Origin: Oligoflexales bacterium | GTDB lineage: Bacteria > Bdellovibrionota_B > Oligoflexia > Oligoflexales > Bog-1112 | DNA length: 20,897 nt | Assembly: GCA_045105515.1 (NCBI GenBank) | Contig: JBGCDR010000105.1 | Span: 1 to 20,897, forward strand | Direction of reading: 5' to 3' | Shown: one piece after another, positions 1-20,897 of the stretch | How positions within the stretch are numbered: the stretch's first letter is position 1 | Layout: every line of letters begins with the position of its first letter | The notes under the pieces: generated by a model | Database searches by the model: none | Seen by the model: only the letters and a program-made list of their open reading frames with translations | Told to the model about the DNA's origin: nothing | Position numbers and translations under genes: made by a program

Positions 1-131
1 TTATAAAGCATCAAGTTGGCCTTGATAGGACAAAAATAAATTAGTACGAAATAGTTGAATTAACTGATGTGTCGGAAAATTTAAACAAGTAGTTATACTG
101 ACTCAATTAAGAAATAAAAGCATTTCGGTCA

Positions 132-2736: not shown

Positions 2737-2765
2737 GTTCAATGCGGAACTCAACTTATCTTTTT
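2733..2765 (+). terminator. Possible intrinsic terminator or processing hairpin
   Basis: TTGAGTTC-aatgcg-GAACTCAA 8-bp stem overlapping the stop codon, followed by cttatcttttt. Confidence 0.4.
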
Positions 2766-2798
2766 ACTGTTAAAAGGGAATTTGAAGGATAAATATCC

Positions 2799-4581: not shown

Positions 4582-4615
4582 CAGTGCCATTTAACATAGA
4601 GTGTGGAAGATAAAA

Positions 4616-5146
4616 ATGCCTAGAATTGATCATTATAGCGTTAGAGTCATACTTATCAATGATAAGAACGAATTACTTCTAATGCACGCTAAAGATCCTT
4701 CAACTACAAGAACTGACGGAAAATACAATGGTGACTTTTGGTTTTTGATTGGAGGAGAGCAAGAAAACGGGGAATCTGTCATTCAGACAGCGGTAAGAGA
4801 ACTTTGGGAAGAAACCGGACTAAAGGAAGCCGAATTTAAACTTGGACCCATAGTTTGGAAGGGGGAGTTCGATTTAGTGTTGTCTGGTAAAGAGAGGCGA
4901 ATGAAGCAGAAGTTTATTGTTGCTAGAACTGATGATAATTCTGTTTGCCTTAACAACCTGACCGAATCAGAGAAAAAGGTTGTTAAAGAGATTAGGTGGT
5001 TTTCTCTTGATGAAATTAAGCAAAGTGAGGAAATCATATATCCGGTATTGCTTCCCGAATATCTAGCGCCCATTTTGTCTGGGATATATCCATCTGAAGC
5101 CATAGAAGTGGATATAGGAAGAAATCCTGATGAGGTAATAAAGTAA
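4616..5146 (+). CDS. NUDIX hydrolase
   Basis: Nudix box GGEQENGESVIQTAVRELWEETGL. ATG 4616 preferred over GTG 4601. Confidence 0.9.
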   Translation: MPRIDHYSVRVILINDKNELLLMHAKDPSTTRTDGKYNGDFWFLIGGEQENGESVIQTAVRELWEETGLKEAEFKLGPIVWKGEFDLVLSGKERRMKQKFIVARTDDNSVCLNNLTESEKKVVKEIRWFSLDEIKQSEEIIYPVLLPEYLAPILSGIYPSEAIEVDIGRNPDEVIK

Positions 5147-6043
5147 ATGCCAGAAACAAAACTTCACGACGATGAAGTCGATATTGATGTGACAATCGTT
5201 AAACATTTGATAGCTAAGCAGTTCCCTCAGTATGATAGACAAGTTGTTTCAGCTCTTGTCCCTTCTGGGACTGATAACAAAATGTTTAAGCTTGGTCTGG
5301 ATAAGATTGTTCGACTTCCGAGAACTAGTGGTGCTGTAGCAAGTTTGCAAAAAGAAGAAAAATGGTTACCAATAATCGGAGAAAATCTTCCGACAGCTGT
5401 GCCAATACCAATCCATGCGGGAGAGCCTACAAAGGAATACCCCTTTCCATGGCTTATAATTCCATTCATCAGTGGAAGTACTCCAGGGCTATCGAACCCA
5501 CTCGATGGAGAGCAGGCAGCATTCGATCTTGCTAAATTCATTGGTGCAATGCAACAACAAGATACGAATGGTGCTCCATTATGCACCAGAGGGCAGCATA
5601 TAAAGAATAGGGATAGTGCTGTTAGGAAAAGTGTTGAGTTGTTGGGTGATGAATATGATTTGGATCAACTCTTAGAAATTTGGAACGATTCTGTAAACAC
5701 GCCTAGATGGGAAGGGCCTTCATGCTGGATTCATGGTGATCTGCATGTAGGAAATATTCTCAGCAACGGTGGTAAAATTAACGCTATTGTTGACTTTGGC
5801 TTGTGTGGGGTCGGTGAGCCTTCTTGTGATTTCATGCCCGCTTGGACTCTACTCAAAAAAGAGAATCGAGAGAAGTTTCGATCGTTGATAAACGCTGATG
5901 AAAATTGTTGGAAGCGAGCTAGGGGTTGGGCTTTTAGTATGGGAGTCCTTGGGTATCCATACTACAAAAATACTAATCCTATTTTTGCATCGATCGCAAA
6001 AAATGCCATGGACCAAGCTATTGCTGACTTTGTCGGTTATTAG
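5147..6043 (+). CDS. Aminoglycoside phosphotransferase (APH)-family kinase
   Basis: SGTDN loop, VRLPR, Brenner motif WIHGDLHVGNIL, IVDFG, RARGWA; directly abuts the NUDIX stop. Confidence 0.9.
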   Translation: MPETKLHDDEVDIDVTIVKHLIAKQFPQYDRQVVSALVPSGTDNKMFKLGLDKIVRLPRTSGAVASLQKEEKWLPIIGENLPTAVPIPIHAGEPTKEYPFPWLIIPFISGSTPGLSNPLDGEQAAFDLAKFIGAMQQQDTNGAPLCTRGQHIKNRDSAVRKSVELLGDEYDLDQLLEIWNDSVNTPRWEGPSCWIHGDLHVGNILSNGGKINAIVDFGLCGVGEPSCDFMPAWTLLKKENREKFRSLINADENCWKRARGWAFSMGVLGYPYYKNTNPIFASIAKNAMDQAIADFVGY

Positions 6044-6071
6044 CTAATAATATCATGAAGGAAGCAGAGCC

Positions 6072-7073
6072 ATGTCCGATTTGAAGAAAATTATCATTGA
6101 TTGCTTGCAAACTCACTATCTCATTAAAGTCACCATGGTCAAACAGCTTGCGTTAGGAGCGGATATAAACGCATGTGTATTTGAAGCTCAAAGCAGTGAT
6201 GAAAAATCTTACTTCGTCAAAGTAAAAAATGGTCATCCTGATGAAATGAATTTGATGATTTTCGAGCTTTTGCAATCGGTAGGGATACAAGATATCATTT
6301 TTCCGCTCAAAACAACTGAAGGGAACCTAACTCATAAACATGATGACAATAACTTGATTGTTTACCCTTTTGTTGATGGTCAGGATGGATTTCATCGATC
6401 TTTAAGCCATCAACAATGGATTCGTCTCGGTAAAACATTATCAAAAATTCATAGCGTGGAAGTTCCTGGTTCAATACAAGACGTTATTCGACGAGAAGAT
6501 TTTTCTCCTAAGTGGAGAAATGTCGTTAAGTCTCTTTACGCTCAGATTGAAAAAATGGAAATTACTGATGAAATAGGCCTTAAATTCTCACAGCTCATAG
6601 TAGAGAATAAAGAAACTATTGAGCAGATGATAAATTATGCTGAAAAACTTGGTGTAGGTCTACAAAATCAGTCCCTAAAATATGTCCTGTGTCATTCAGA
6701 TATTCATGCTGGAAATATTCTATTAAGTGAAAACGATACGTTTCATATTGTCGATTGGGATGACCCGATAATGGCACCTAAAGAGAGAGATCTTATGTTT
6801 ATTGGTGGTGGCGTAGGAAATGTTTGGAATCAACAAAATGAGGAGGAGTTGTTTTATAAAGGCTATGAAAATGAATCGATAGACGAGACAATCCTAGCCT
6901 ATTATCGCTTTGAACGGATCGTTGAAGATATTGCAGAATATGGCCAGGAACTGCTTTTTAACGATGGTGTCAACAAAGATAGAGAGCAGATGTACAGAGA
7001 TGTTTTAGATCAGTTCGAACCGCAAGGCGTCATTGATATAGCTTTTCGAACTTATAAGAAGCTGGTTCAATAA
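6072..7073 (+). CDS. aph(9): APH(9)-like spectinomycin phosphotransferase
   Basis: GADINA, SYFVKVK, SPKWR, YVLCHSDIHAGNIL, DWDDPIMAPKERDLMFIGGGVGNVWN and YYRFERIVEDIA closely match my recollection of Legionella APH(9)-Ia. Confidence 0.8.
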   Translation: MSDLKKIIIDCLQTHYLIKVTMVKQLALGADINACVFEAQSSDEKSYFVKVKNGHPDEMNLMIFELLQSVGIQDIIFPLKTTEGNLTHKHDDNNLIVYPFVDGQDGFHRSLSHQQWIRLGKTLSKIHSVEVPGSIQDVIRREDFSPKWRNVVKSLYAQIEKMEITDEIGLKFSQLIVENKETIEQMINYAEKLGVGLQNQSLKYVLCHSDIHAGNILLSENDTFHIVDWDDPIMAPKERDLMFIGGGVGNVWNQQNEEELFYKGYENESIDETILAYYRFERIVEDIAEYGQELLFNDGVNKDREQMYRDVLDQFEPQGVIDIAFRTYKKLVQ

Positions 7074-7119
7074 AGAACTCCATTTGAGTCATTGGGGTCT
7101 TTTAATAAAGAGGTTTATA

Positions 7120-7752
7120 ATGGAATATCCAAATCCTAATCAACTATTTCCCATTCAGGGAACCAAACGTGTATGTTTCATTGCGAATACCGTCAAGAAT
7201 CCAAATATTAAAATTGGTGATTACACATATTATGATGATCCAGATGATGCAGAGAATTTTGAAAGGAACGTACTGTATCATTTTGACTTTGTTGGCGACC
7301 AGCTAATTATTGGAAAATTCTGTGCTATTGCAACAGGCGTAAAGTTCATCATGAACGGAGCCAACCATCGTTCAGATACTTTTTCATCTTATCCCTTTGC
7401 TGTTATGGGTGGTGAGTGGGCATCTATGCTAAAAGGACAAGATATTGGAGCTCCGTCAAAAGGTGATACAGTTATAGGAAATGATGTCTGGATAGGATAC
7501 GAAGCAACCATTATGCCAGGTGTGAAAATAGGAGATGGATCGATCATTGCATCCAAGTCAGTTGTCGTAAAAGATGTAGAGCCTTACTCTATTGTAGGTG
7601 GAAATCCTGCTAAAGAAATCAGAAAACGATTTGATGAGAAGACGGTTGGGGATTTGCTGCGATTAAAGTGGTGGGATTGGACAGTTGAAAAAATCACAAA
7701 AAGGCTTCCAAATATTTTTAGTAGCGACCGCTCAAAGCTTCAAAATTTATGA
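7120..7752 (+). CDS. vat: Vat/CatB-type xenobiotic O-acetyltransferase (streptogramin A acetyltransferase-like)
   Basis: PNPNQLFP, NPNIKIGDYTYYDD, VLYHFDFVGDQLIIGKFCAIA, MNGANH, KGDTVIGNDVWIG, hexapeptide repeats and WWDW. ATG 7120 follows AGAGG. Confidence 0.8.
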   Translation: MEYPNPNQLFPIQGTKRVCFIANTVKNPNIKIGDYTYYDDPDDAENFERNVLYHFDFVGDQLIIGKFCAIATGVKFIMNGANHRSDTFSSYPFAVMGGEWASMLKGQDIGAPSKGDTVIGNDVWIGYEATIMPGVKIGDGSIIASKSVVVKDVEPYSIVGGNPAKEIRKRFDEKTVGDLLRLKWWDWTVEKITKRLPNIFSSDRSKLQNL

Positions 7753-7837
7753 TGAGCCTTGACATCAAGGGATGTCTGTTGGCAAAAAAGATGTTTTTCT
7801 TAAGTTTTGGAACATGGCGACTTGTGCTCTCCTAAAG

Positions 7838-7859
7838 TAGCTCTCTCATTAGAGAGCTA
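7838..7859. terminator. Hairpin between the convergent vat-like and flavodoxin genes
   Basis: TAGCTCTCT-catt-AGAGAGCTA perfect 9-bp stem; weak U-tract. Confidence 0.45.
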
Positions 7860-8435
7860 GCGCTCTACATTTAAATATTCCAATTGGCCTCTCTTGAAAG
7901 TGGTTGTAATGGCAGCGATTCGCTTTCCAAACAACTCGGCAGTCAAGAGGTCTTCCACTCTTAATTTCTGATTCTTATCAGAAATGGAACTTGCCCCAAG
8001 TCCCATCCAGAATCCATCGCAGTTTCTTCGGTCCTTTGAATCAGAAAACTTGTCGCCTAATTCACTTTGTCCCACCCATATCATTCCATGTTGAGCAGCA
8101 AAAACTGCTAATTGAACCAGCGTCATTAGTTTGTCTCCGGATGGGCACCCTCCAACTGTGAATCCAGCAGCGACCTTGTCCTTCCAAGGCTGCTCAGTCC
8201 AAAATTTGCTTGTAGCATCCATGAAGCCTTTAAAGTGTGAGTCAGCACTGCCCATATATGTCGGTGAACCGAATACTAATCCATCCATTTTATGCAGATC
8301 TTCGATATCAAAATCTTGCCTGACATCTATAATCTGCACTCTAGCAATTTCCTCAATTCCTTTTGCAAGATGTTTTGCCACTAGTTCTGTGTGGCCACTG
8401 CCAGTTGAGTATAGGACTGCTATGTCTGCATTCAT
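7857..8435 (-). CDS. WrbA-like flavodoxin / NAD(P)H-dependent oxidoreductase
   Basis: FMN loop YSTGSGHT, FGSPTYMGS, WKDKVAAGFT, SGDK and AAQHGMIWVG. Alternative TTG start at 8444. Confidence 0.88.
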   Translation of the reverse strand: MNADIAVLYSTGSGHTELVAKHLAKGIEEIARVQIIDVRQDFDIEDLHKMDGLVFGSPTYMGSADSHFKGFMDATSKFWTEQPWKDKVAAGFTVGGCPSGDKLMTLVQLAVFAAQHGMIWVGQSELGDKFSDSKDRRNCDGFWMGLGASSISDKNQKLRVEDLLTAELFGKRIAAITTTFKRGQLEYLNVER

Positions 8436-8468
8436 TTTTCTCAATACTCCAAGAATTCTTTGGTCATT

Positions 8469-8882
8469 TTATCCCTCAATCTGTCTTTTCAAGCTTTCCA
8501 TGTCGTTGCGGACCCAACTTTCTTTTATTTTTCCATTTTCAAAACTCACCATCGTGAGACTGCTTATCTTTACTCTCCTTCCTGTGGCATCGAGGCCAAA
8601 AATATTTCCAGAATGTGTACCTTCAAAAGTGGCTTTTGAGGCAACGAAGGCATCTTCAGCAACAAGATGGTCGAGGGTTATTTTGAAATCTGGAAAAGCA
8701 CCTTTGAACATAGAGACAACTTGCTCTATGGCTTTTTTGCCTGAGTCAATATTGGGTGGTGCATCGTGCAATGTGTAGTCATCTGTGACATATTGATCGA
8801 GTAATTCAAGCTTCCCCTGATTGAAGATTTCCTCAATGTAGCTTCTATAGGTTATTTTGTTCTTTGAGGTTGTGCTTTCCAT
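8469..8882 (-). CDS. SnoaL-like ester cyclase family protein
   Basis: EIFNQG, AFPDFKITLDHLVAED, FEGTHSG, ATGRRV and ENGKIKESW. ATG 8882 follows the RBS AGGAG. Confidence 0.88.
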   Translation of the reverse strand: MESTTSKNKITYRSYIEEIFNQGKLELLDQYVTDDYTLHDAPPNIDSGKKAIEQVVSMFKGAFPDFKITLDHLVAEDAFVASKATFEGTHSGNIFGLDATGRRVKISSLTMVSFENGKIKESWVRNDMESLKRQIEG

Positions 8883-8915
8883 GATTTCTCCTGTTATTGG
8901 TGACTGAAAGTAGGT

Positions 8916-8946
8916 ATGATAAAACCTCAAGTTAACTTGAGGTCAA
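8916..8946 (-). promoter_or_regulatory. SoxR-activated promoter with sox box
   Basis: On the - strand, -35 TTGACC (8946-8941), 19-bp spacer and -10 TATCAT (8921-8916). The perfect palindrome ACCTCAAGTTAACTTGAGGT (8924-8943) matches the canonical SoxR operator. Confidence 0.93.
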
Positions 8947-8951
8947 GTAAA

Positions 8952-9407
8952 ATGAAGGAAAAAGCACAAGTTGCTATTAAAACAGAACTAACAGTCGGAG
9001 AATTGGCTGAAAGAAGCGGTGTAGCCGTCTCAGCACTTCATTTTTACGAACAAAAAGGGCTTATCCCAGCTTTTAGAACTGAGGGGAACCAAAGGCGTTT
9101 CCCAAGGGGGGTTTTAAGGCGCGTAGCTATTATCAAGGTTGCTCAAAGGCTAGGGATTTCACTAAATGAAATCGGAGATGCCTTTGATTCTCTGCCAAAA
9201 AACCGAGCACCGACAGCCAAGGATTGGGCAAAGCTGTCCTCAGTATGGCGGAAAGAACTAAACCAGCGTATTGAAGTCATGACAAAGCTAAGGGATCAAT
9301 TGAATGATTGTATCGGTTGTGGCTGTTTATCAATGTCTGAATGCCCATTGAGGAACCCCAAAGACAAACTTGGAAAGAAGGGTTCCGGTGCTAAGCTTCT
9401 GGAATAG
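8952..9407 (+). CDS. soxR: Redox-sensitive transcriptional activator SoxR
   Basis: Mer[49 protein letters not shown] and the [2Fe-2S] motif [12 protein letters not shown]. Confidence 0.96.
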
Positions 9408-9470
9408 AGATGCTAACTAAATTCAAAGACATCGGAAAATCGAATTGTTACAAGTCTATGAAGAAGAAAT

Positions 9471-9763
9471 ATGAAAAATAATGGTGTAACTGAACTTCTT
9501 ACTCAATTGGTTGAGGAAATAAATGGCCTTTACGGCTATTCTTCAATCCCTGATTTTGAAGGCCCATGCATTAACCTCGGGTCTTGTGGAGTTTTTGCCT
9601 ATGAATTTTACAAAGCATGGAATGACCTTTTTGAGGATAAGATTCATATTGTTTTTATAATGGACACGAAAACGAGGATTGTTGGCGTATTGTAGTTAGA
9701 CTAATAGATGGTTTAGTGATCTTGTCAGTGCTATCAAAGGAATTTGGATTCCTGCCTGATTAG
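9471..9763 (+). pseudogene. Probable frameshifted remnant of a hypothetical protein
   Basis: 74-aa ORF (INLGSCGVFA...HIVFIM). The -1 frame from the A-run at 9669-9672 continues ENEDCWRIVVRLIDG... to TAG 9761-9763. Confidence 0.45.
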
Positions 9764-9794
9764 GGACTAAATGGTTGTTTCGTTGTTTCTACTA

Positions 9795-9823
9795 TTGACA
9801 TTGCGAACTATTCCTAGTAGGTT
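9795..9823 (+). promoter_or_regulatory. Putative sigma70 promoter for the downstream methyltransferase
   Basis: TTGACA (9795-9800), 17-bp spacer, TAGGTT (9818-9823). Confidence 0.5.
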
Positions 9824-9977
9824 TTCCGCTATGAATACCTAAGAAAAAATCCCCTAAAAACCTGACCGTGATCAACACTACGAATGCAATATGTTGTGTA
9901 AGTTAGCTTCGCTAGCTTTCTTTACGTGATATTGGCATGTTAAAACGAAAATAAATTAAATTTTGGAGAACATAGGT

Positions 9978-10817
9978 ATGTTCAGCAAATTGATTAACAT
10001 AAATAAAAGGCCGACAGCCTTTGAATTTTACACCACCAAGACTTTGTGGACAGAGGACTATATTTCGAAGAAGATGCTGGAGATTCATTTGGATAGCAGC
10101 ACCGATCTTGCTACTAGGAAACCTGAATTCGTCAGAAAATCTGTTGATTGGATGGTTCGATATTTTTCAATAGGAAAAGATTTTAGGATTTGTGATTTTG
10201 GTTGTGGTCCAGGACTATACACAACTCCACTTGCACAAGTAGGAGCGAAGGTTACTGGAGTTGATTTTTCTAAAAGATCGATTAACTATGCAAATAAAGT
10301 AGCTGCTAAAGAAAAATTGGATATCGAATATATTCATAGTGACTATCTGAAGTATTCTTCGAATAGAAAATTCGATCTTGTTACTTTAATTTTCAATGAT
10401 TTTTGCGTTCTCTCTCCTCAGAAAAGAAAAGAGATGTTTAAGGTGTTTAAGGAGCATTTGGCGCCTGGGGGTAGTTTACTCCTTGATGTCTGCTCTTTGG
10501 AGCTATTTAACCAAGCTAAAGAATCAGTTAACTACGAATTTTCACAAAAAGATGGCTTTTGGTCAAACAACCCCTATTTTGAGTTTCAGAACACCTTCAA
10601 ATACGACAAGGAAAAAGTACTGCTTTATAAACATACAATCATAAACGACAAGTCTAAGAGAGAGATTTTCAACTGGCTTCAATGCTATGATTTGGCAAGT
10701 CTTGAAAATGAATTTCAAGAAAATGGCTTTACGATTATGGAACTCTTTTCTAATGTTTGTGGAGCTCCACTTGGTGATGAATCTGTAGACATTGCGGTCG
10801 TTGCAAAATTGCAATAA
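9978..10817 (+). CDS. Class I SAM-dependent methyltransferase
   Basis: ICDFGCGPGLY motif I, VTGVDFSKRSI, FDLVTLIFNDFCVL and LAPGGSLLLDV. ATG 9978 follows GGAGA. Confidence 0.9.
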   Translation: MFSKLININKRPTAFEFYTTKTLWTEDYISKKMLEIHLDSSTDLATRKPEFVRKSVDWMVRYFSIGKDFRICDFGCGPGLYTTPLAQVGAKVTGVDFSKRSINYANKVAAKEKLDIEYIHSDYLKYSSNRKFDLVTLIFNDFCVLSPQKRKEMFKVFKEHLAPGGSLLLDVCSLELFNQAKESVNYEFSQKDGFWSNNPYFEFQNTFKYDKEKVLLYKHTIINDKSKREIFNWLQCYDLASLENEFQENGFTIMELFSNVCGAPLGDESVDIAVVAKLQ

Positions 10818-10846
10818 TGCAGGATATGGAATTACTTTCTTTCTTC

Positions 10847-13141
<2,295 letters not shown>

Positions 13142-13396
13142 CCTAAATAGACTTAAAATTATGAATGAGATTTGGTGGTTATCTTTGTAATTCGAAAGGT
13201 GATAAAGACCCTGCCAATGTTGAAATTAGTCGATTCCCAAAGAGATGAAAACAACAAGCTTCTATGCTATCTCTAAATTGACGCTAGCTTGCCAGGTTAG
13301 AAACAATGCGCATACTTGCTGAACTATTTTTCCTTAGCCTTAGACTGCTTAGCAGCCTAGGATGAATCATTTATCATTTTTTTCAAGGAAATTTCC

Positions 13397-13762
13397 ATGA
13401 TCAAATTCTACGGCTACAAAAAATGCAGCACCTGCCGCAAGGCTGAAACCTTCCTTGAAAAGAACAAAGTCGGTTATGACTTTATCGATATAACTGAGAA
13501 CCCACCATCCAAGGCTCAGCTCAAGAAAATTCTGAAAAACAGCGGACAGCTGATCAAGAAGCTATTCAACACAAGTGGGCAGGTTTATCGCGAAATGGGG
13601 CTGAAGGATAAGGTAGATACTCTGGGTGAAAGTGAGATTTTCAGCATGATGGCGGATAACGGCAAGCTGATCAAACGGCCTCTGGCTTTTGATGGTGAAA
13701 AGGCCACGATTGGATTCCGCGAAGAGGATTATAAGCAAATTTGGAAGCGGCGACGTGATTAA
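13397..13762 (+). CDS. ArsC/Spx/MgsR family protein (YffB/YusI-like)
   Basis: FYGYKKCSTCRKA CxxC, FNTSGQVYRE and LIKRPL motifs; RBS AAGGA. Confidence 0.9.
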   Translation: MIKFYGYKKCSTCRKAETFLEKNKVGYDFIDITENPPSKAQLKKILKNSGQLIKKLFNTSGQVYREMGLKDKVDTLGESEIFSMMADNGKLIKRPLAFDGEKATIGFREEDYKQIWKRRRD

Positions 13763-13773
13763 TTTTTAGGCTT

Positions 13774-14049
13774 GTTTTGGTATGGTTGAGTACCTATGAG
13801 TATAGAGTGGTAAGTGATCTTAGATTTGTTAATTCCCACTTGGCAGCTCATTAAAAGCTTGAGATAGTTCCTGTAGGGGGAGGGGCGTCGCTGACGACCT
13901 TTCGATGGGGATCTTTGACATTGTTAGTAGATTGGAACTGAGCCGCGGGGGCGGGGGTGCTTTGGTTTCGGTAGAATGAGTGACATCGAATAAGCGGACA
14001 CAAAACGGACACAAATTTTGTACTTTTGGGTACCAAACCATACCAAAAC
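13774..14049. repeat. 21-bp imperfect inverted repeat pair bracketing a 276-bp G-rich segment
   Basis: GTTTTGGTATGGTTGAGTACC (13774-13794) versus GGTACCAAACCATACCAAAAC (14029-14049): 19/21 complementary, outer 14 bp perfect. Confidence 0.8.
13995..14016 (+). repeat. Tandem direct repeat CGGACACAAA(A/T) x2, putative integrase arm-type sites
   Basis: CGGACACAAAA CGGACACAAAT at an 11-bp period, about 130 bp left of the putative att core. Confidence 0.6.
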
Positions 14050-14137
14050 TTGTGCTTCCTTCGCTTTATTTGGTTAACGGTTTTACCAATGAATACCAAA
14101 GCATATTGCTCAGTATCCATCTTGTTTATGGCTTCCG

Positions 14138-14167
14138 CCACGCGGCGGCATGGGCGGCATGATGTAG
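14138..14167 (+). other. Putative att core: orphan copy of the groEL 3' end (GGMGGMM*)
   Basis: GGC GGC ATG GGC GGC ATG ATG TAG (14144-14167) encodes the GroEL GGM tail. There is no groEL body upstream, and it lies 163 bp from the integrase stop. Confidence 0.75.
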
Positions 14168-14211
14168 GATTATCCTACTGATTCCGACCGGTTACCTGGT
14201 CTTCGTGGCCC

Positions 14212-14302
14212 CGTGGCACGAATTTCCGGCACAATTCAGGCTTCAAAACCTGAAAAAAGGCTGGAAATAGAGGATCTTCTCGAAGATCCACGCGGCACAC
14301 TT
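14212..14302 (+). repeat. GGCAC-core direct repeats, putative arm-type sites of the adjacent integrase
   Basis: tGGCACgaat (core 14215), cGGCACaatt (14228) and cGGCACactt (14294). CCACGCGGC occurs at both 14138 and 14288. Confidence 0.5.
14272..14289 (-). terminator. Hairpin downstream of the integrase
   Basis: GGATCTTC-tc-GAAGATCC inverted repeat about 40 bp past the int stop, followed by tctattt on the - strand. Confidence 0.45.
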
Positions 14303-14329
14303 GATTCTTAAAAGGGTTTCTTCTCATCC

Positions 14330-15742
14330 CTAGTTCTTGCTGGAACGGATGAGTCGAAGCCCTTTTTTAATTGAGACAACATTGCCAATAGTCTCCTCAA
14401 TGACCTCGTTTTTTTCAGAAACTGAGACCTCCTCATTTCCTTTATTTGAACCATCTTTAGGTGTACTTTGCTCATCCTCAGACTTTTGTTTTAGCCGATC
14501 TTTCCTTGACCATTGGCGAGAAGCTGTATCATTGATGATGTCGCCGTGAACATATCGCATGGTCGTTTTGATATCCGAGTGCCCAGCAATTTGCTGCACT
14601 TTAGGGACAGGCAAAGGTTTTTCCATCCCATAGCCATTGGCCAAGTTTGTCAGACAAGTATGACGGAGACTGTGAAAATGGATCTCTTTAATACCAGCCC
14701 AGCGGCAAGTGCGAGAGAAGCATTTGATGCTGTTCATGTGAATATTGAAAAGGGGTTCTTTTTGAGGAGTATGCCTCTTTCTCATCAATATTTCCCTGAC
14801 ATCATCATTGATTTCAATGCGTCTGGCTTTCTTGCTTTTGGTGGTATTCTTACGAACCTTTTCTTTGTTGCTATATGACGCTCTAACAATAAGAAAGCCC
14901 CGAACTAAATCCACATCAGCATTGCGAATTGCACCAATTTCTCCAAGCCTCATTCCGGTACGCAAGGCAAATAAAACGATATCTCGAAGTTCCTGAGGAT
15001 TTCTAATCTGTAACTTTATAACTACTTTTTTTTTGCCTTTATGATGGTAACGTGAGGTTTCCTTTTCATAAAAACCACCAGCTTCTATCCAATCCAGAAA
15101 CTGATCTTCTTCCTCCAAACGCCAGTAGTCAAAAAGATGTTCTGGAGTTTTTGGGAGTTTGAAAGTCTCGAAAGGATTATCAGGAATTAAAGGAGGTCTT
15201 CGAGCAAATCCCCAAGAAGTAATCATGCAAGCAACAGTTAAAATTTCTCGTTGATAGGAAAGGCTTAGTTTATCTTCATCCTCGATGGCATTGTTTTCCC
15301 AGTGGGTCTTTCTAATGGCTAAATAGGATTTACTTTTAGCCTTTTTTATCCGAAGTTCTTTTGCCAATTTTTCAAGATGATCCAATTTTAATTTTCTCAA
15401 CTCAATCTGACCAAAAACAGGAAAGATATGATTTTTTAGATGACAAGAGTAATTCATAAGACATGATTCAGATATTTGCCTCACATGTCTTCCATGCTCG
15501 ATCCACCTAGCAGCTAGGTCTTGAAACGTCTTGAGGGATTCATTTATTTCTGACTCATTAGGGAACCAATGAGAGAGATTATCACCTCTAGCTATCGCCC
15601 GTTTCAAATTTTCAGCTTCAGTTTTGGTTCGACAGCTCTTGTTGCGATAAATGCCATCGGCATCATCATAAAACCTAACTTTCCAAGTTCCATATTCAGA
15701 TTGGTAAATTTTTGGTTCACTTTTGTTGTAATTGTTCTTCAT
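14330..15742 (-). CDS. int: Tyrosine recombinase / phage-type integrase
   Basis: N-terminal arm-binding-like beta domain (WKVRFYD...TKTEAE), SAM-like domain, and catalytic TGMR, TKSKK, HSLRH, AGH and TTMRY. ATG 15742 has the RBS AAGGAG and an ATGA overlap with xis. Confidence 0.95.
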   Translation of the reverse strand: MKNNYNKSEPKIYQSEYGTWKVRFYDDADGIYRNKSCRTKTEAENLKRAIARGDNLSHWFPNESEINESLKTFQDLAARWIEHGRHVRQISESCLMNYSCHLKNHIFPVFGQIELRKLKLDHLEKLAKELRIKKAKSKSYLAIRKTHWENNAIEDEDKLSLSYQREILTVACMITSWGFARRPPLIPDNPFETFKLPKTPEHLFDYWRLEEEDQFLDWIEAGGFYEKETSRYHHKGKKKVVIKLQIRNPQELRDIVLFALRTGMRLGEIGAIRNADVDLVRGFLIVRASYSNKEKVRKNTTKSKKARRIEINDDVREILMRKRHTPQKEPLFNIHMNSIKCFSRTCRWAGIKEIHFHSLRHTCLTNLANGYGMEKPLPVPKVQQIAGHSDIKTTMRYVHGDIINDTASRQWSRKDRLKQKSEDEQSTPKDGSNKGNEEVSVSEKNEVIEETIGNVVSIKKGLRLIRSSKN

Positions 15743-15939
15743 TTTGATCGTTCTCCTTGTAGCTGAGTCAGCACTTCGCTGACTCGAAACCTCAAAGAAT
15801 GACCAAGTTTGTAGTACGGAATTTTCTCCTGTTTTCGCCACTTGCGGATAGTATGGATCGACACCCTAAGGGTCTTCGCCAATTCTGCCGCAGTGACAAA
15901 TTTTTCGCTTATTCGGTTGTCAAAGATCACGCCACCCAT
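15739..15939 (-). CDS. xis: Excisionase-like HTH_17 DNA-binding protein
   Basis: FVTAAELAKTLRVSIHTIRKW...IPYYKLGHSLRF. ATG 15939 follows AAGGAGG; coupled to int. Confidence 0.85.
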   Translation of the reverse strand: MGGVIFDNRISEKFVTAAELAKTLRVSIHTIRKWRKQEKIPYYKLGHSLRFRVSEVLTQLQGERSK

Positions 15940-16015
15940 GGGCAAGCCTCCTTTTATATCTTCAATTTGCGATTTCTCAAAGGGAGAGAGACAAGTGCTT
16001 GGATTCAAAAGGAAC

Positions 16016-16759
16016 TTAGTTGAAAAGATTTCTCTCATGGGCCACTTCGCATCCTAATTTGGCCATTCGAGAAAGAATCGCGGCTGAAGCTTCAGGACAG
16101 AGTTCAACCCCGAGGCCAATCCTGCCGAGTTGCTCAGCAGCTTCAAAAATGGCTCCTGATCCTGCAAAAAGATCGAGAACAGCCTCATCTCTTAGGGTGT
16201 GATTGAGCATGGGGATTGTGTAGACCCCAATAGGTTTTTCTGTGGGATGAATACGTAGTTTTGGTTTAACAGAAGGAACATTCCATACAGATCGTTGCTT
16301 TCTATCCCCTGTCCAATGATCTGTAACCTTTACTCCTTGTTTTACACAAACTAAGCATTGCTCATGCTGGAGATGATAGAGGTGACGTTGCAAGGAGAAA
16401 TGATTTTTTACCCAGATGATCATTTGTTTGATGTCATAGCCAGCATCTTGGATGGATCGAGCAACTACATCGTAATGTTTGTAGGAAAACCACACATAGA
16501 GGACAGGAGCTTGTGACAAACGAAAGGCATTCCCCCAGCTTACAATATGATCGTTTTTCAATTTCAGTTTGTAGAGACTCTCATTAGCACACCTAGATGT
16601 GTAGCTGATCCCGTAAGGAGGATCTGTTAGGCACAATTTTGGTTTGTTCCCCCTTAGGAAAGCATCAAGCATTACTTTTTCAGTGCTGTCACCACAAAGC
16701 AGTCTATGCTTGCCCATTTTCCAGATGTCACCAAATTTAACTTTGTATTTTTCTGTCAT
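16016..16759 (-). CDS. Orphan N4-C/N6-A DNA methyltransferase (beta order of motifs)
   Basis: GDIWKMGKHRLLCGDS, catalytic TDPPY, HPTEKP and SAM-binding VLDLFAGSG. ATG 16759 follows AAGGAG. Confidence 0.92.
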   Translation of the reverse strand: MTEKYKVKFGDIWKMGKHRLLCGDSTEKVMLDAFLRGNKPKLCLTDPPYGISYTSRCANESLYKLKLKNDHIVSWGNAFRLSQAPVLYVWFSYKHYDVVARSIQDAGYDIKQMIIWVKNHFSLQRHLYHLQHEQCLVCVKQGVKVTDHWTGDRKQRSVWNVPSVKPKLRIHPTEKPIGVYTIPMLNHTLRDEAVLDLFAGSGAIFEAAEQLGRIGLGVELCPEASAAILSRMAKLGCEVAHERNLFN

Positions 16760-16848
16760 CTTTACTCCTTTGATTGAGCAAATAGTCACGAAGGATGGCG
16801 GCTGAATCTATGCCATCTCCCCGCCGAATGCTGAGCATCGTCATGCCG

Positions 16849-17220
16849 TTAATTGGATTCCTTTGGATTTGCCTGCTCTTTGATTTGATTGACCTGAGGC
16901 AATCCTTTAGCTAGAAGCATTTTCAAAAATTCATCTTTAGAAATGGTTCCACTTTGTTGACAGTATTTTTTGAATTGGATTTCCAAATGATCCTGGCTTG
17001 AGAAAGTTGCTTCCTTAATCTCTTTAATTTGAGGTTCACAAATCAGTTGCAGAGCCTTTAAAATCACGTTGTCCTGCTTGACTCTGCGTCCATGGGATTT
17101 TCGATTGCATTTGCTGACGATCGATTTTAGTAATCTAGCTGTGGTTTTGCTGACTCTAATTGGAATTGTGTTTGATGTTGTTGTTTTGGGTGACATTTTT
17201 TCTGTGGAGTTTGAATCCAT
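16849..17220 (-). CDS. Small basic DNA-binding protein, ribbon-helix-helix-like
   Basis: Alternating beta strand TIPIRVS followed by helices KTTARLLKSIV and QDNVILKALQL; RBS AAGGAG. Confidence 0.55.
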   Translation of the reverse strand: MDSNSTEKMSPKTTTSNTIPIRVSKTTARLLKSIVSKCNRKSHGRRVKQDNVILKALQLICEPQIKEIKEATFSSQDHLEIQFKKYCQQSGTISKDEFLKMLLAKGLPQVNQIKEQANPKESN

Positions 17221-17260
17221 AGTAAGCTCCTTAGATGGCTTGTTGTTATGAATATGAATA

Positions 17261-17390
17261 GGGGCAGAGAGAAGGAAGTGGAGAAATGAGACAAGGACAT
17301 AGATAAGGGCAAGAAGGAAATGAGAGGAAGAAATAGAGAAAGAGATACGGGAAACGAGAGAAAAAGAAAGGGAACGAGAAATAGCGAAAC
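17261..17390 (+). other. Polypurine tract in the relaxase-RHH intergenic region (candidate oriT/ori component)
   Basis: Hand count gives 113 of 130 nt as A/G, built from degenerate GAGAAA/GAAA units. Confidence 0.7.
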
Positions 17391-17460
17391 AAGTAGTCAG
17401 TCAGGATTGAAATATATAGCTAAAGTGCCTATTATCAAAGGGATGTGTCGTTTCTTGAAT

Positions 17461-17472
17461 GTGGGTACCCAC
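17461..17472. repeat. Perfect 12-bp palindrome GTGGGTACCCAC
   Basis: Self-complementary sequence 24 bp from the stop of the relaxase-like gene. Confidence 0.8.
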
Positions 17473-17495
17473 CTGCTTTCCATCAGCAACCCATA

Positions 17496-18215
17496 TCACA
17501 AAGTCAGAATCGCATTGTGATAATTCTTAAATTGCAATGATTCATTTTTTAGTAATAAATTGCTTACTTGGTAGAAAAACTTTGGTTGATCGCTGCTGAA
17601 TAACTCTCGCTCAATGCCCATTACTTTGTTACAAATTGATTGGCTGTCGGAGATGAATAAAATGAGTGGGTATATGTCAGAGTTGTAGTATTTCTTTAAA
17701 AAATCATCGTAGCGACGTTCCATTTTAAGAGTGCATTCATACTCAATCGGCAACTCAACTGCTTCAGACTGGATAATTGTAGTAACGATGGCATCAGAAT
17801 TTAGCCTGCATGCTTCATTTGTGCCCCATGTCTGGATCTCATTTTCTGTAGTATAATACTTAGTCTTATTTGAGTTCAATAAACTATGGCGAATGTCTAC
17901 CAGAGCAACATCATGATGCACCGAATCAGATTTTATTTCGATACGTTTTTCATTTCCCCTTCTAACAAAGTTCTCAAATGATTTTTTGGTATTGGAGACA
18001 ATTCTTTTTCCTTTTAGTAGTAAGCGACTTCTCTGAATTTGTACCAACCTATTGTCTTCTAATTTTCTGATTCTGTTACCAAGGCTTTCTTGAGTAATAT
18101 CACTGAAGACATCTCTGGTGATCTGCTCATAGGTAGCTGCTTTAACAGCATGTAAATACTTAAAGAGTAAAATATCCCTTTCATCGAGGTACATTCCCAT
18201 AATTTGTTGTTTCAT
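17496..18215 (-). CDS. Replication-relaxation (Replic_Relax / MOB_C-like) relaxase
   Basis: N-terminal winged HTH (LDERDILLF...ATYEQI...RIRKLEDNRLV) and HHDVAL. The motif D-x16-EYE-C-x2-K-x3-RY fits the MOB_C D-x(6-17)-ExE-[RL]-x2-K-x3-R-[YF] signature except at one position. Confidence 0.75.
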   Translation of the reverse strand: MKQQIMGMYLDERDILLFKYLHAVKAATYEQITRDVFSDITQESLGNRIRKLEDNRLVQIQRSRLLLKGKRIVSNTKKSFENFVRRGNEKRIEIKSDSVHHDVALVDIRHSLLNSNKTKYYTTENEIQTWGTNEACRLNSDAIVTTIIQSEAVELPIEYECTLKMERRYDDFLKKYYNSDIYPLILFISDSQSICNKVMGIERELFSSDQPKFFYQVSNLLLKNESLQFKNYHNAILTL

Positions 18216-19747
18216 GTGTTCTCCTTAACTGCCCCGTATGCCCTCTTGTGTTGTTTTGCTACCTTGCTCTTTTCCACATCACCCAACATTGGAGTGAACA
18301 TCTTCTTTTTCCCATTAGAAAATTGATCAACAATTCCTAGGCATCTTGCTTTAATCGTCTTTTCATCAATAAAGGGAGCCTGAACGATCACTTTCTTGGT
18401 GCCATAGTTCCACACCCCTCGACCTGGTATTTCAGGAAGGTCGCAAGCATCCTTCGTTCCCAAGACAATCAAGCTTCCTTGAAGAGAATTAGCACGAAAT
18501 GCCATGCGCCCTGAAATGTTCTCAGATACTGAGGTGGGGATGACCTGTCTATCAAGCTTTTGTGTTGCAAGGATCAAATGAATACTGGCAGCACGAGACA
18601 ACTTAGAGATAGAATCAGCAAGCTGTCTTGCTTCAAGTGCCGATTGGTATTCTGGATCATTTCTGGGCCGATTCATATACAGAACAGAGCATTCATCCAC
18701 ACCAACCACGATCCTATCCTTGTGGTCTTTCTCTGGAATGATTTGCTTACGGCTCTTGGCCTCAAGATACCTAAATCTGTCTTTCATCTCCTTTTCCACT
18801 CGCCTCAAAACCACCAAGGCATCGTCCATGGTCTTTACTACCTTGACGTTGGGACACTTCACAAAGTCGATCATCTCTACGCCGCCTTTGAGATCAATCA
18901 GATACATTTGCAAATGTGGTGATGATTCCAAGAGCCCCATGATAATTTGCTTAAACTGAACCGATTTACCACTGCCTGTGGTGCCTGCAATGATCATGTG
19001 GGGCAATTCATCGATGCGTTGTGTCACGACTCCTTCACCTGACATTCCAAGGAAGAACCCCTCTTTTGGCAAGACATTAGATGCAACAAGATCCGTGTAT
19101 TTGACTTTTTCTGGAAACTTCATCGTGCTAAAGGTTACAACGATCTGTCCTTGGTGTTTGCCATGTTTGATTGATTCGACATTTGTTCTAAAGAACGATT
19201 CCAAATGGCTTTTTTTGTCGCTGAAATTTTCTAAGCTAACCCCATTAGCATCAAAAATATAACTCCTTCGATGTTTATCATGCTTCTCAATTCTGATTAA
19301 TTTGGGTGTATCTTTCCTACCGTTTTGAATCCCGATCATTTCAAATAGCTTTTGATACTTTGTTCTTGTAGCTCTTGCCCATCCCCCTAAAACAAGCACT
19401 AATGGACTTAAAAACAAAATAAACAATACAATCCAGTGATACAAGATTGGGATATCATACATCCAACCAATTCGTTTCATGGTAATAAGATCAGGCTCTA
19501 ATTCATGAATCCAAACGATATGGATGCCATTTGCTGCTATATAAAAACTGTAATAAAGTAGAGCTATGAGGCTACCCCAGGAGAATGGGAACCACCTAGA
19601 GATGAGAGATTTTAGAAAAACCCATGTACCTATACTCGACACAACAATGAATTCTTGCAGGAACTCATTGAATGCAATTGCTAGTGCATCAGGCTGAGAC
19701 CCTGTTTTATTTTGAAACTTTTCTTTGCTATTAGGATATTTGTCCAT
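18212..19747 (-). CDS. FtsK/SpoIIIE-domain membrane ATPase (putative coupling protein / DNA translocase)
   Basis: N-terminal TM segments, PHMIIAGTTGSGKS Walker A, IDLKGG, VGVDE Walker B, SRAASIHLILATQK and LPEIPGRG. ATGA overlap with the relaxase. Confidence 0.9.
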   Translation of the reverse strand: MDKYPNSKEKFQNKTGSQPDALAIAFNEFLQEFIVVSSIGTWVFLKSLISRWFPFSWGSLIALLYYSFYIAANGIHIVWIHELEPDLITMKRIGWMYDIPILYHWIVLFILFLSPLVLVLGGWARATRTKYQKLFEMIGIQNGRKDTPKLIRIEKHDKHRRSYIFDANGVSLENFSDKKSHLESFFRTNVESIKHGKHQGQIVVTFSTMKFPEKVKYTDLVASNVLPKEGFFLGMSGEGVVTQRIDELPHMIIAGTTGSGKSVQFKQIIMGLLESSPHLQMYLIDLKGGVEMIDFVKCPNVKVVKTMDDALVVLRRVEKEMKDRFRYLEAKSRKQIIPEKDHKDRIVVGVDECSVLYMNRPRNDPEYQSALEARQLADSISKLSRAASIHLILATQKLDRQVIPTSVSENISGRMAFRANSLQGSLIVLGTKDACDLPEIPGRGVWNYGTKKVIVQAPFIDEKTIKARCLGIVDQFSNGKKKMFTPMLGDVEKSKVAKQHKRAYGAVKENT

Positions 19748-19756
19748 ACATCACAC

Positions 19757-20791
19757 CTACACCTTTCTTGCTACAGCTGACGCAGCTCCAGTGGTTCCAC
19801 CTGTAGCTGCTCCAACTCCAATATCTTTGGCATCAGTAACCACTTGAGGCGCTTGTTCTGTTTGTGAATCAGTCAAAAATGATGAGAATAGACCGTAGCC
19901 TAGGATCAGCGTCGGCAGTGGGCCTACAAGAATTTGCAACCAAGAGTAGAGTGCATAGAATTGGTAAAGCTTTGCAGTCACGAAACTAGCAGAATACAAC
20001 GAAATTCCATCGGATATCTCCCCCCACTCCATCATGAGATCATTGGAAACAGCAATACTGGTCATTAAATGGTAAAGCAGTGTCCAAATTGGGGTCCACA
20101 GAAGAACTGAGATATACAAAGCAAACCAAGCAATGATTACCTTCCAACGACCTGCTATAACAAAGAAGATGAGCCAAGGGAACAGAAAGATAAGAAACAT
20201 CTTTACCATGCCTTTGAGGTGAGGTGCTCTTTGAAGATACTCGGAAAATTTCTCAGCTCGCTCTGCGGTTAATGCAGCACCAACTTGATCCCTTTGCCCC
20301 AATGTGGACAGAAAACCATCCCAGGACCAAAAACGGCTCCAACCGTGGATGATTTTGGCTAATGTCCCTCGAACCTCAGAGCCTTTTTGAATACCTAAAT
20401 TATCCTCAGTTTGTGCTAGGTAGTGGTTGACTAAAACATTTGAAGCGATGAGATTGCGCTCGTCGGTCTCAGTGATCTCACTGCGTCTGATGGAATATTT
20501 CCCTGAATAGCTTTGATAGAACTTAGCTCCTTTTCTTTCTGCATAAGACCATAGGTTTGAGCGCACCAGATTTTTCAAAGTGAGGCAATTAATCTTGCTA
20601 CCATCGTCAAGGGTGATTGGGATGTGCTTTAATTCACGGTCGATAACCCCATTGAGTCCAAAAAATTCATCTATTTTGTCTTTTCTAGCTGTCATTCCAA
20701 GCATGGGAAGAATCTTGTCAAAGCAGCTATCCGTATAGACATCAATCTTGTCTCTGAGAGCCAGGGTTGATTCAAGTAAGCTTTTAACCAA
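19757..20791 (-). CDS. TraG_N/VirB6-like polytopic membrane protein, probably 5'-truncated
   Basis: Soluble region with two Cys, then PHLKGMVKMFLIFLFPWLIF...YISVLLWTPIW TM helices and a Gly/Ala-rich tail. TTG start without an RBS; in-frame stop at 20816-20818. Confidence 0.55.
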   Translation of the reverse strand: MVKSLLESTLALRDKIDVYTDSCFDKILPMLGMTARKDKIDEFFGLNGVIDRELKHIPITLDDGSKINCLTLKNLVRSNLWSYAERKGAKFYQSYSGKYSIRRSEITETDERNLIASNVLVNHYLAQTEDNLGIQKGSEVRGTLAKIIHGWSRFWSWDGFLSTLGQRDQVGAALTAERAEKFSEYLQRAPHLKGMVKMFLIFLFPWLIFFVIAGRWKVIIAWFALYISVLLWTPIWTLLYHLMTSIAVSNDLMMEWGEISDGISLYSASFVTAKLYQFYALYSWLQILVGPLPTLILGYGLFSSFLTDSQTEQAPQVVTDAKDIGVGAATGGTTGAASAVARKV

Positions 20792-20897
20792 ATTTTGAAG
20801 TACGTTAAAATGGGTTCAGCATATTTTTTTAACAAAATTTTTGTTGTCAAAAATATTTGAGATGTATTTTTTTGACTATTCAAGCATAATCTAACAA

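Follow-up and report, generated by a model that had tools for sequence, protein, structure and literature searches.

The stretch of DNA analyzed here, referred to as the window, is a whole contig of 20,897 bp (C105) from a fragmented Oligoflexales metagenome-assembled genome (MAG; 461 contigs, 6.3 Mb, 90.9% complete, no contig <2.5 kb), and its positions 14143-20761 are probably the end proximal to the attachment site (att) in an integrative conjugative element (ICE) from a bacterium of the Oligoflexales/Bdellovibrionota type. This element would process its DNA by a pair of proteins, an FtsK/TcpA-like ATPase and a 239-aa protein with a predicted nuclease fold, for an F-like pore. The system is real, conserved and coherent, and it represents an ICE whose coupling ATPase, relaxase and pore are paired in a way that the reviews consulted do not list. 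Seven co-oriented genes of the module are encoded on the minus strand (14330-20791; Table 1), as described in a first-pass annotation of the window, and the two ATGA couplings given there are present: the stop codon of the ATPase gene overlaps the start of the 239-aa gene (18215-18212), and the stop codon of the excisionase gene (xis) overlaps the ATG of the tyrosine integrase gene (int; 15742-15739). The gene set of that annotation stands while its order is corrected to TraG-like, ATPase, 239-aa protein, 123-aa protein, DNA methyltransferase, xis and int. Because of the xis/int overlap we assign the integrase to 14330-15742 (470 aa) and not to the 503-aa open reading frame (ORF) starting with GTG. 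The 344-, 239- and 123-aa products have no Pfam match.

The module recurs on the contigs C131, C48, C64 and C439 of the same genome, and further copies of TraC and TraH lie on C21 and C350, with TraH truncated there by the contig ends. On C131 the order reads groEL, followed by integrase, xis, methyltransferase, a 112-aa protein, the 239-aa protein, the ATPase and a 521-aa TraG-like protein, then a TraH-like protein (PF06122, E 0.0036), a CPT-like kinase, a transposase and TraC (PF11130, E 3e-24). These are followed by TraV, TrbI-like, TraK_C-like and TraE-like proteins and two cargo genes and, last, by a thioredoxin-like protein, a T2SSE/PilB-type ATPase (E 1e-87), TraU and sigma-70 region-4 regulators. 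In the genome G012 a bounded element of ~44.9 kb with 47 ORFs encodes an F-like set, a PilB-type ATPase, the ATPase-nuclease pair, Xis and integrase. The proposal to look for VirB4/TraC further along the element thus has a twofold outcome: the contig ends here and nothing beyond it is contained in the window, which apart from a truncated TraG_N-like gene has no pore genes, while TraC together with an F-like pore set is present in the full copies on the sister contigs and in G012. What is missing in these copies are the canonical partners. No VirD4-type protein and no canonical relaxase is found among the 47 ORFs of the G012 element, neither family is found among the C131 ORFs scanned, and searches with PF02534, PF10412, PF03432, PF08751, PF07514, PF03389 and PF02486 gave no genome-wide match at E <= 0.01. 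The VirD4-type partner (PF02534/PF10412) reported for known MOB_C relaxases was not found in these searches, and the neighbor of the 239-aa protein is an FtsK_SpoIIIE protein.

The 239-aa protein is the candidate relaxase of the module. A word-indexed search returned 31 relatives, and an alignment of 29 of them with 39-92% identity (A1) served as profile, next to a set covering the C-terminal domain (A2). With the A1 profile, 1239 cluster representatives reach E <= 1e-3, and 213 of them reach E <= 1e-30. Invariant residues include H101, D102, D141, E158 and K164 in A1 and E160 in A2. AlphaFold2 models the whole protein with a predicted local distance difference test score (pLDDT) of 92.2 and residues 92-239 alone with 90.9. 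Residues 1-91 align to MarR-type winged helices (Z 9-11.3, VIA), so that the N-terminal winged helix-turn-helix (wHTH) domain of MOB_C proteins is predicted here as well. As wHTH proteins filled the list of the whole protein, the nuclease domain was folded and searched alone. Its top match is LlaBIII (Z 8.7, root-mean-square deviation 3.9 A, 128 residues aligned; VIA-align, 48,161 chains), next come BsaWI (Z 8.1) and N.BspD6I (7.6) and then BstEII, R.BspD6I, SdaI, PaqCI, FokI, Can2, Card1, NucS, Hjc and others, and most of the top 50 matches are restriction endonucleases or other PD-(D/E)xK nucleases. The MOB_C-like architecture assigned earlier to this protein, a wHTH (Z ~11) followed by a restriction-endonuclease-type fold, is thereby supported at the level of prediction.

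The link to a relaxase family comes from the relatives. PF13814 (Replic_Relax) matches 10 of the 29 A1 members and 51 of the 136 representatives scanned from the best 150, of which 31 exceed the 25.3-bit cut-off, and no other family recurs. NF041423 (NCBIfam MobC_subf) matches 20 of the 29 members with a best E of 4.4e-9, all far under the 200-bit cut-off. Replic_Relax has been placed in the PD-(D/E)xK superfamily (Steczkiewicz et al., 2012, PMC3424549) and is read as MobC by CONJscan (PMC5357655), and MOB_C is described as PD-(D/E)xK-related, its member TraX having an N-terminal wHTH and binding repeats located 70-120 bp from nic (PMC12857230); these and the following statements refer to the accessible parts of the three papers. 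The profile of the 239-aa family has no match among PDB sequences at E <= 10, PF13814 searched across the genome gives noise only (E > 4, on an unrelated contig), and tblastn of the Replic_Relax-positive relative P0172 against 72,556 plasmid records gives no match at E <= 1e-3. In the CloDF13 record NC_002119 mobC is not listed and the mob region consists of fragmented ORFs. The earlier assignment as MOB_C-like relaxase thus stands for the family link via relatives, while the window protein itself does not pass the curated profile cut-off. We regard it as a distant Replic_Relax/MOB_C relative and a candidate relaxase that would nick the DNA.

Among solved structures the ATPase is closest to 6o1w, 6o1x and 6o1z, which bear the name "DNA translocase coupling protein" and match over residues 129-462 (E 3.7e-24); we take them to be TcpA of plasmid pCW3. 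A recent review cites TcpA102-530 under a near-identical code (PMC12857230). Lower-ranked relatives are the FtsK/SpoIIIE-family chain 4nh0 (E 2.6e-16), FtsK (8e-13) and EccC, and no TrwB or VirD4 chain is among the 10 PDB matches of the ATPase. In plasmids, tblastn found 340 records, dominated by Bacillus (121) and Clostridium (108), and the best matches are from Clostridium perfringens with 26-30% identity over 71-80% of the query. A Walker A motif, GTTGSGKS, is located at residue 255, and a hydrophobic segment at 95-127 (Kyte-Doolittle >1.6, a crude method) is compatible with an N-terminal anchor. The FtsK_SpoIIIE core is hence closer to TcpA/FtsK than to VirD4, and the description of the ATPase as TcpA-like is borne out by the chains taken as TcpA and by the C. 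perfringens plasmid proteins as nearest relatives. When ATPase residues 129-511 and the 239-aa protein were modeled as a complex, the score was 0.69, compared with 0.01 for the best of 3 controls; 116 of 157 solved complexes reached this mark, as did 2 of 215 mismatched pairs, counts that apply only roughly since our own alignments were supplied. At least 87% of contacts are common to the runs, and the pLDDT of the partner is at least 85. On the ATPase side the modeled interface comprises the C-terminal tail (489-510) and residues 308-312, on the side of the nuclease domain residues 148-153, 174-184, 210-212 and 230-238. The model supports a binding of the ATPase to the 239-aa protein through its C-terminal tail, and a pass by memorization of a like complex seems unlikely because no sequence in the PDB is related to the nuclease family.

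The arrangement is conserved beyond the genome under study. All nine loci examined in other genomes, labeled as Oligoflexales, Bacteriovoracaceae or "Deltaproteobacteria" MAGs and read only as far as each contig reaches, keep TraV, TraC, TraH, TraG-like, ATPase, 239-aa, ~112-aa, (methyltransferase), (xis, int). The ATPase gene lies immediately upstream of the 239-aa gene in eight of them, the ninth being cut by the contig. An arrangement that recurs on four contigs of the same genome and in nine other loci is not due to chance. Across the phylum, matches to the A1 profile occur in 26 of 131 genomes, the window genome included, and in 18 of 55 genera. Of 14 further loci, among which one is a duplicate of L009 and several probably overlap the nine, 12 have the ATPase gene beside the nuclease gene. 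The conservation of the trio of ATPase, nuclease and small protein, a point on which the first-pass annotation had made its reading depend, is therefore found across the surveyed loci. The pair is not tied to the F-like pore. In a closed 2.2-Mb genome with 8 nuclease-family matches, a compact VirB-like element belonging to these 12 loci (L031, G047:C1:1624100-1644099) encodes a VirB2-like pilin, a VirB4/TraC-like ATPase, CagX-like (VirB9-like) and TrbI-like (VirB10-like) proteins, an FtsK-like ATPase and, adjacent to it, a Replic_Relax protein above cut-off (37.6 bits). This element ends in a 602-aa serine recombinase and is located beside rpoA-rplQ-gcvTHP-yebC. In L039, Replic_Relax, HTH_17 and integrase only are present, which is the layout of a mobilizable island. 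Because the ATPase-nuclease pair is found with different pore types and recombinases, it travels as a DNA-processing module.

The integration target is the 3' end of groEL. The att core is located ~150 bp past the integrase stop codon. Within it, positions 14147-14171 (25 bp) repeat exactly the groEL end as it is found beside the C131 integrase, comprising the last codons (...GGMGGMM), the stop codon and the 4 nt after it. Over its full 43 bp the core is 97.7% identical to the sequence beside a third integrase on C404. The integrase abuts the 3' end of groEL in C131, G012 and G042, and the G012 element of ~44.9 kb is bound by direct repeats of 60 bp with 96.7% identity (contig positions 190-249 and 45056-45115). 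Accordingly, int and xis lie by an att site and direct repeats bound the full element, while the window shows one att copy only. In the genome of the window groEL is present as a single copy on C131, and no groEL is found upstream of the att core in the window. Because the cores of the window and of C404 occur without groEL, we infer that elements are stacked at one groEL site. The island on C404 (257-14929) encodes integrase, Xis, DUF3987, Prim-Pol, an HTH protein, a MauJ-like protein and Fic, and it has neither pore genes nor the pair. Type I restriction-modification S and R subunits, GmrSD and DUF4062 left of the C404 core suggest that defense cargo uses the same hotspot. An RNA gene as integration target was considered and rejected, as ARAGORN and Rfam were blank in the window (gathering thresholds) and in 13700-14400 (E <= 10). 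In G012 a third core copy of 27 nt (C9, 2695-2721) lies 2.5 kb inside the 44.9-kb element; this inner copy delimits a small segment with Cro/C1-type HTH and DUF2975 genes and may be a remnant or a satellite.

We propose that in the full copies TraE, TraK, TrbI/TraB, TraV, TraC, TraU, TraH and the TraG_N-like protein would form an F-like pore, encoded upstream together with a PilB/GspE-class ATPase, and that a module of the window type would supply DNA processing and integration. The 239-aa protein would act as a MOB_C-type relaxase at the origin of transfer (oriT), which is probably the 275-bp region downstream of its gene, and the membrane-anchored FtsK/TcpA-like ATPase would stand in for the VirD4/TraD coupling protein and may recruit the relaxase via its C-terminal tail. 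For the 123-aa protein an accessory role in DNA binding is likely, the orphan methyltransferase probably shields the element DNA from restriction, and Xis and the tyrosine integrase would excise and integrate the element at the groEL 3' end. The window copy, cut in its TraG_N-like gene by a repeat, probably belongs to a tandem array and would be mobilizable by sister elements at best. Of this reading, the gene content, folds, synteny and att repeats and the lack of canonical coupling-protein and relaxase families are direct results of the analysis, whereas nicking, the location of oriT, the functions of ATPase and methyltransferase and the tandem arrangement are inferred.

Several observations weigh against this reading. 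The window protein has no PF13814 match at E <= 1, and it scores 16.2 bits (E 0.0047) on NF041423 compared with the cut-off of 200 bits; because it lies under the curated thresholds, we claim Replic_Relax/MOB_C membership at the superfamily level only. For the nuclease domain, Foldseek gives E >= 0.007 and VIA Z <= 8.7, a middling range, and for this reason the PD-(D/E)xK match is claimed as a fold and for no specific family. The catalytic constellation is D...ExE...K and not the textbook (D/E)xK. The "F-like" mating-pair formation (MPF) type is derived from Pfam matches alone, with TraH, TraK_C and TraE under the curated cut-offs, and the absence of a family is no proof in a MAG of 461 contigs, through which the tandem array cannot be read either. 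In two of the 14 further loci (L039, L040) the nuclease gene has no adjacent ATPase match, and the motif CTGACTGACTACT of the putative oriT is kept only within the genus, that is in the sister copies and in one locus of the same genus. Moreover, Replic_Relax is termed a "predicted transcriptional regulator" that is usually fused to an HTH (PMC3424549).

This last point bears on an explanation in which the 239-aa protein is a regulator or a replication or maintenance factor of the excised element and another protein performs the nicking, either an unrecognized one or Prim-Pol/DUF3987, while a coupling function of the FtsK-like ATPase would remain compatible with it. Many ORFs of the full elements have no family assignment, and Prim-Pol together with DUF3987 is found both in the G012 element and on C404. 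Yet the acidic residues and the lysine of the nuclease domain are invariant in the 29 relatives with 39-92% identity, which argues for catalysis, and the 239-aa gene takes the position of traI in the F plasmid, where the distal order is traH-traG-...-traD-traI. It overlaps translationally with the ATPase gene, its product is predicted to bind the ATPase, both proteins recur beside two pore types, and in L039 the nuclease is accompanied by xis and int alone, as in a mobilizable island. We consider this explanation unlikely and keep the 239-aa protein as candidate relaxase.

With the MPF_F systems (F plasmid, SXT/R391 ICEs) the full copies share TraE, TraK, TraB/TrbI, TraV, TraC, TraU, TraH and the TraG_N-like protein, and their succession of TraH, TraG, coupling ATPase and relaxase equals the distal tra order of F. 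They differ from MPF_F in that TraD/VirD4 and a TraI-type relaxase are lacking, a PilB/GspE-class ATPase is added and insertion is performed by a tyrosine integrase at groEL, and no matches to TraN, TraW and TraF are found among the element ORFs scanned. The MOB_C relaxases (pAD1 TraX, CloDF13 MobC) resemble the 239-aa protein in the combination of an N-terminal winged helix with a restriction-endonuclease-fold domain in ~240 aa, in a gene located in a conjugation module beside the coupling ATPase, and in the PF13814/NF041423 matches of its relatives. In contrast, the window protein lies under the curated thresholds, its partner is FtsK/TcpA-like instead of VirD4 (PMC5357655), its host is of the Bdellovibrionota type and neither an enterobacterium nor a member of the Firmicutes, and its nicking activity is putative. 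TcpA (C. perfringens pCW3, Tn916/ICEBs1-type) is like the ATPase of the module with regard to the N-terminal anchor, the FtsK_SpoIIIE ATPase without a long C-terminal DNA-recognition part, and the gene position directly upstream of the relaxase gene. However, in the reviews TcpA is found only with the Firmicutes MPF_FA type and MOB_T or MOB_M, whereas the TcpA-like ATPase here is accompanied by a MOB_C-like nuclease and by a pore that is F-like or VirB-like.

According to the accessible text of these reviews, the coupling proteins of all type IV secretion systems (T4SSs) of Gram-negative bacteria are assigned to the VirD4 family and TcpA to a subset of MPF_FA (PMC12857230, 2025), and TcpA is found only in Firmicutes, never with canonical relaxases, while MobC elements carry VirD4 (Coluzzi et al., 2017, PMC5357655). 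The association of TcpA with Firmicutes systems and of MOB_C with VirD4, on which the first-pass annotation had relied, is hence stated in both sources. In their accessible parts the combination of ATPase, nuclease and pore does not appear (PMC12857230; PMC5357655), and searches of an open-access library brought up neither a paper describing this combination nor one about Bdellovibrionota ICEs. The suggestion of an uncharacterized family of conjugative elements is therefore supported by the unlisted combination and by the pore of the full copies, but it does not extend to the window copy, which is truncated and poreless. Within the accessible text, the element family repeatedly breaks three published rules, namely VirD4 in Gram-negative bacteria, TcpA in Firmicutes, and MOB_C with VirD4. 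ICE finders that require a VirD4-type coupling protein and a known relaxase are expected to miss these elements. Moreover, the family provides a Gram-negative setting for two questions, by which route DNA enters a T4SS when the relaxase is of a non-HUH type without a known covalent intermediate, and whether single or double strands are moved by a coupling ATPase that resembles FtsK, and the predicted contact between tail and nuclease is a concrete and testable interaction. The groEL 3' end, as a hotspot with stacked elements carrying kinase, acetyltransferase and defense cargo, can serve as a marker for Bdellovibrionota islands.

The question of single or double strands leads to a further explanation, in which the ATPase is a pump for double-stranded DNA, as has been suggested for Streptomyces TraB and considered for TcpA, and the nuclease cut is double-stranded or non-covalent, so that no single-stranded DNA piloted by a relaxase would be transferred. 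The ATPase is nearer to 6o1w/6o1x/6o1z (taken as TcpA) and to FtsK than to VirD4-type proteins, the greater similarity of TcpA to FtsK than to TrwB has prompted the suggestion of double-stranded transport, and a covalent intermediate with DNA was not observed in the case of TraX, a MOB_C relaxase (both in the accessible part of PMC12857230). On the other hand, no γ-type DNA-recognition domain is evident in the ATPase, which ends soon after its core, as judged from length only. The pair is furthermore accompanied by a complete F-like or VirB-like pore with VirB4/TraC, and to our knowledge all studied T4SSs of these types move single-stranded DNA, as is textbook knowledge. We hold this explanation to be very unlikely and prefer a relaxase working with a coupling ATPase. 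A more far-reaching idea, and a distinctly unlikely one, is that an FtsK/TcpA-type motor, docked by its tail on a non-HUH and possibly non-covalent relaxase, has replaced the pair of VirD4 and HUH relaxase in the F-like and VirB-like systems of the phylum. If this was true, DNA would take another route to the pore than the textbook one, lacking a covalently bound pilot protein or even moving as a duplex.

The remaining genes of the module are assigned with different certainty. The TraG-like protein is supported by 29 of 30 Atlas feature matches, which are TraG_N clusters (0.95; TM score 0.58-0.68), and by its position after TraH, but not by the Pfam model: TraG_N (PF07916) has no match at E <= 0.01 in the module and none at E <= 10 genome-wide. 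The 123-aa protein has no Pfam, NCBIfam or PHROG match, and its earlier designation as ribbon-helix-helix (RHH) protein draws on two Atlas leads, a MetJ cluster (0.85) and an RHH_1 cluster (TM score 0.33), both sub-threshold. Its family (~112 aa in the relatives) is found mainly in Bdellovibrionota, and its gene lies downstream of that for the 239-aa protein in every locus whose contig extends far enough. The methyltransferase is an orphan without a neighboring restriction enzyme; its gene is present in all five copies of the same genome and in L010, L013 and L014 and is absent in L009. The excisionase scores 29.9 bits on TIGR01764, over the cut-off of 28.8 bits, and alignments of its 66-aa form to C131, L009 and L013 show 77% identity. 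Residues 1-470 of the integrase are 62.6% identical to the C131 integrase.

The intergenic region between the 239-aa and the 123-aa genes is pyrimidine-rich and contains short direct repeats. The motif CTGACTGACTACT occurs at 17392-17404, once in the window against 0 expected, and it is present in four of the five sister copies (window, C131, C64 and C439), while C48 has a shortened form. The region is a candidate for an oriT or a promoter. In the C439 sister copy, the same region between the nuclease and the ~112-aa genes contains a long hexanucleotide tandem repeat of the CCAATA type (~14400-14560).

Table 1. Features of the window (20,897 bp) with coordinates, strand and basis of assignment.
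Feature	Coordinates	Strand	Basis
Left flank, cargo-like gene set	1-14142		Pfam
CPT-like kinase	1118-1657		Pfam
GrpB-GNAT fusion	1654-2736		Pfam
Two APH-family phosphotransferases	5147-6043, 6072-7073		Pfam
764-aa protein with N-terminal 2-oxoglutarate (2OG)-Fe(II) oxygenase and acidic (ED)n run	10847-13141	-	Pfam (PF13640, E 4e-7)
att core	14143-14185		groEL-end identity
Tyrosine integrase, 470 aa, ATG at 15742	14330-15742 (ORF to 15841)	-	PF00589 E 3e-20, PF14659 (SAM_3), phrog_1 E 1e-46
Excisionase-type HTH_17 protein, probably ~66 aa	15739-15939 (ORF open to 16038, 99 aa)	-	PF12728 E 2.5e-10
Orphan beta-class N6/N4 DNA methyltransferase, 257 aa	16016-16789	-	PF01555 N6_N4_Mtase E 1.4e-15; phrog_498 E 1.4e-55
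123-aa protein, candidate relaxosome accessory protein	16849-17220	-	Synteny
Intergenic region, 275 bp, candidate oriT or promoter	17221-17495	-	Repeats, motif
239-aa wHTH + PD-(D/E)xK-fold protein, candidate relaxase	17496-18215	-	Folds, profiles
FtsK/TcpA-like ATPase, 511 aa, candidate coupling protein	18212-19747	-	PF01580 FtsK_SpoIIIE E 4e-21
TraG_N-like gene, 3' part (334 codons)	19757-20761 (ORF 19757-20791, 344 aa)	-	Paralogue, Atlas
End of multicopy repeat, probably insertion sequence	20762-20897		BLAST

At its right end the window copy is truncated. Residues 11-344 of the 344-aa ORF correspond to residues 188-521 of the 521-aa paralogue on C131 with 96% identity, and since the match starts at residue 188 of the paralogue, the ORF is a partial gene lacking ~187 codons at its 5' end. 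The ~136 bp following it are a repeat that recurs at the ends of 40 other contigs. This right-end repeat gave 42 BLAST matches, the window included, with 40 at the ends of other contigs and 2 internal; 39 of the 40 are copies of 129-143 bp with 98.6-100% identity and the other is a weak match on C64, while of the internal matches one is a repeat copy 135 bp from the C98 end and the other, on C131, corresponds to the TraG-like gene sequence next to the repeat. One contig has the repeat at both ends. A second, different multicopy repeat occupies positions 1-137 of the window and recurs at the ends of 19 other contigs, and the repeat bodies are absent from the assembly. Together, the two multicopy contig-end repeats point to a heavy load of insertion sequences in the 6.3-Mb genome. 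That both represent the two ends of one insertion sequence was considered but is not obviously so on comparison.

These findings raise the possibility that the window copy is a decaying and inactive remnant whose gene order is inherited and not maintained. Its TraG_N-like gene is truncated by the repeat, the contig has no pore genes, and the genome is riddled with the same repeat, with 39 copies at the ends of other contigs. However, the other six genes are full length compared with their paralogues and have no internal stops (ATPase 511/511 aa at 94.7% identity, nuclease 239/239 at 91.6%, integrase 470 versus 471 aa), and the att core is intact. A pore supplied by a sister element could still mobilize the copy, and decay would concern this copy and not the family. 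We therefore regard a dead remnant as possible but on the unlikely side and prefer an element end that, being truncated and without pore genes, is on its own at most mobilizable.

The left flank may represent the distal end of a neighboring element in the tandem array. A dense cargo-like cluster extends over 132-13762 and includes, besides the genes listed in Table 1, a hexapeptide acyltransferase, a NUDIX protein, two S-adenosylmethionine (SAM) methyltransferases, a flavodoxin, SnoaL, MerR and an ArsC-like protein. The long C-terminal part of the 764-aa protein matches no family, and the left 14 kb of the window have no match >150 bp to other contigs. The C131 element has comparable cargo at its far end (MepB, GrpB-GNAT, APH, glyoxalase), and in the G012 element genes for APH, GNAT and an aminoglycoside-nucleotidyltransferase-like product are present. 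In the C131 element the kinase gene is separated from traC by an inserted DUF772 transposase (locus L001, 14916-16340), and the cargo region of this element encodes a reverse transcriptase of the group-II-intron type (locus L002, 16797-18509).

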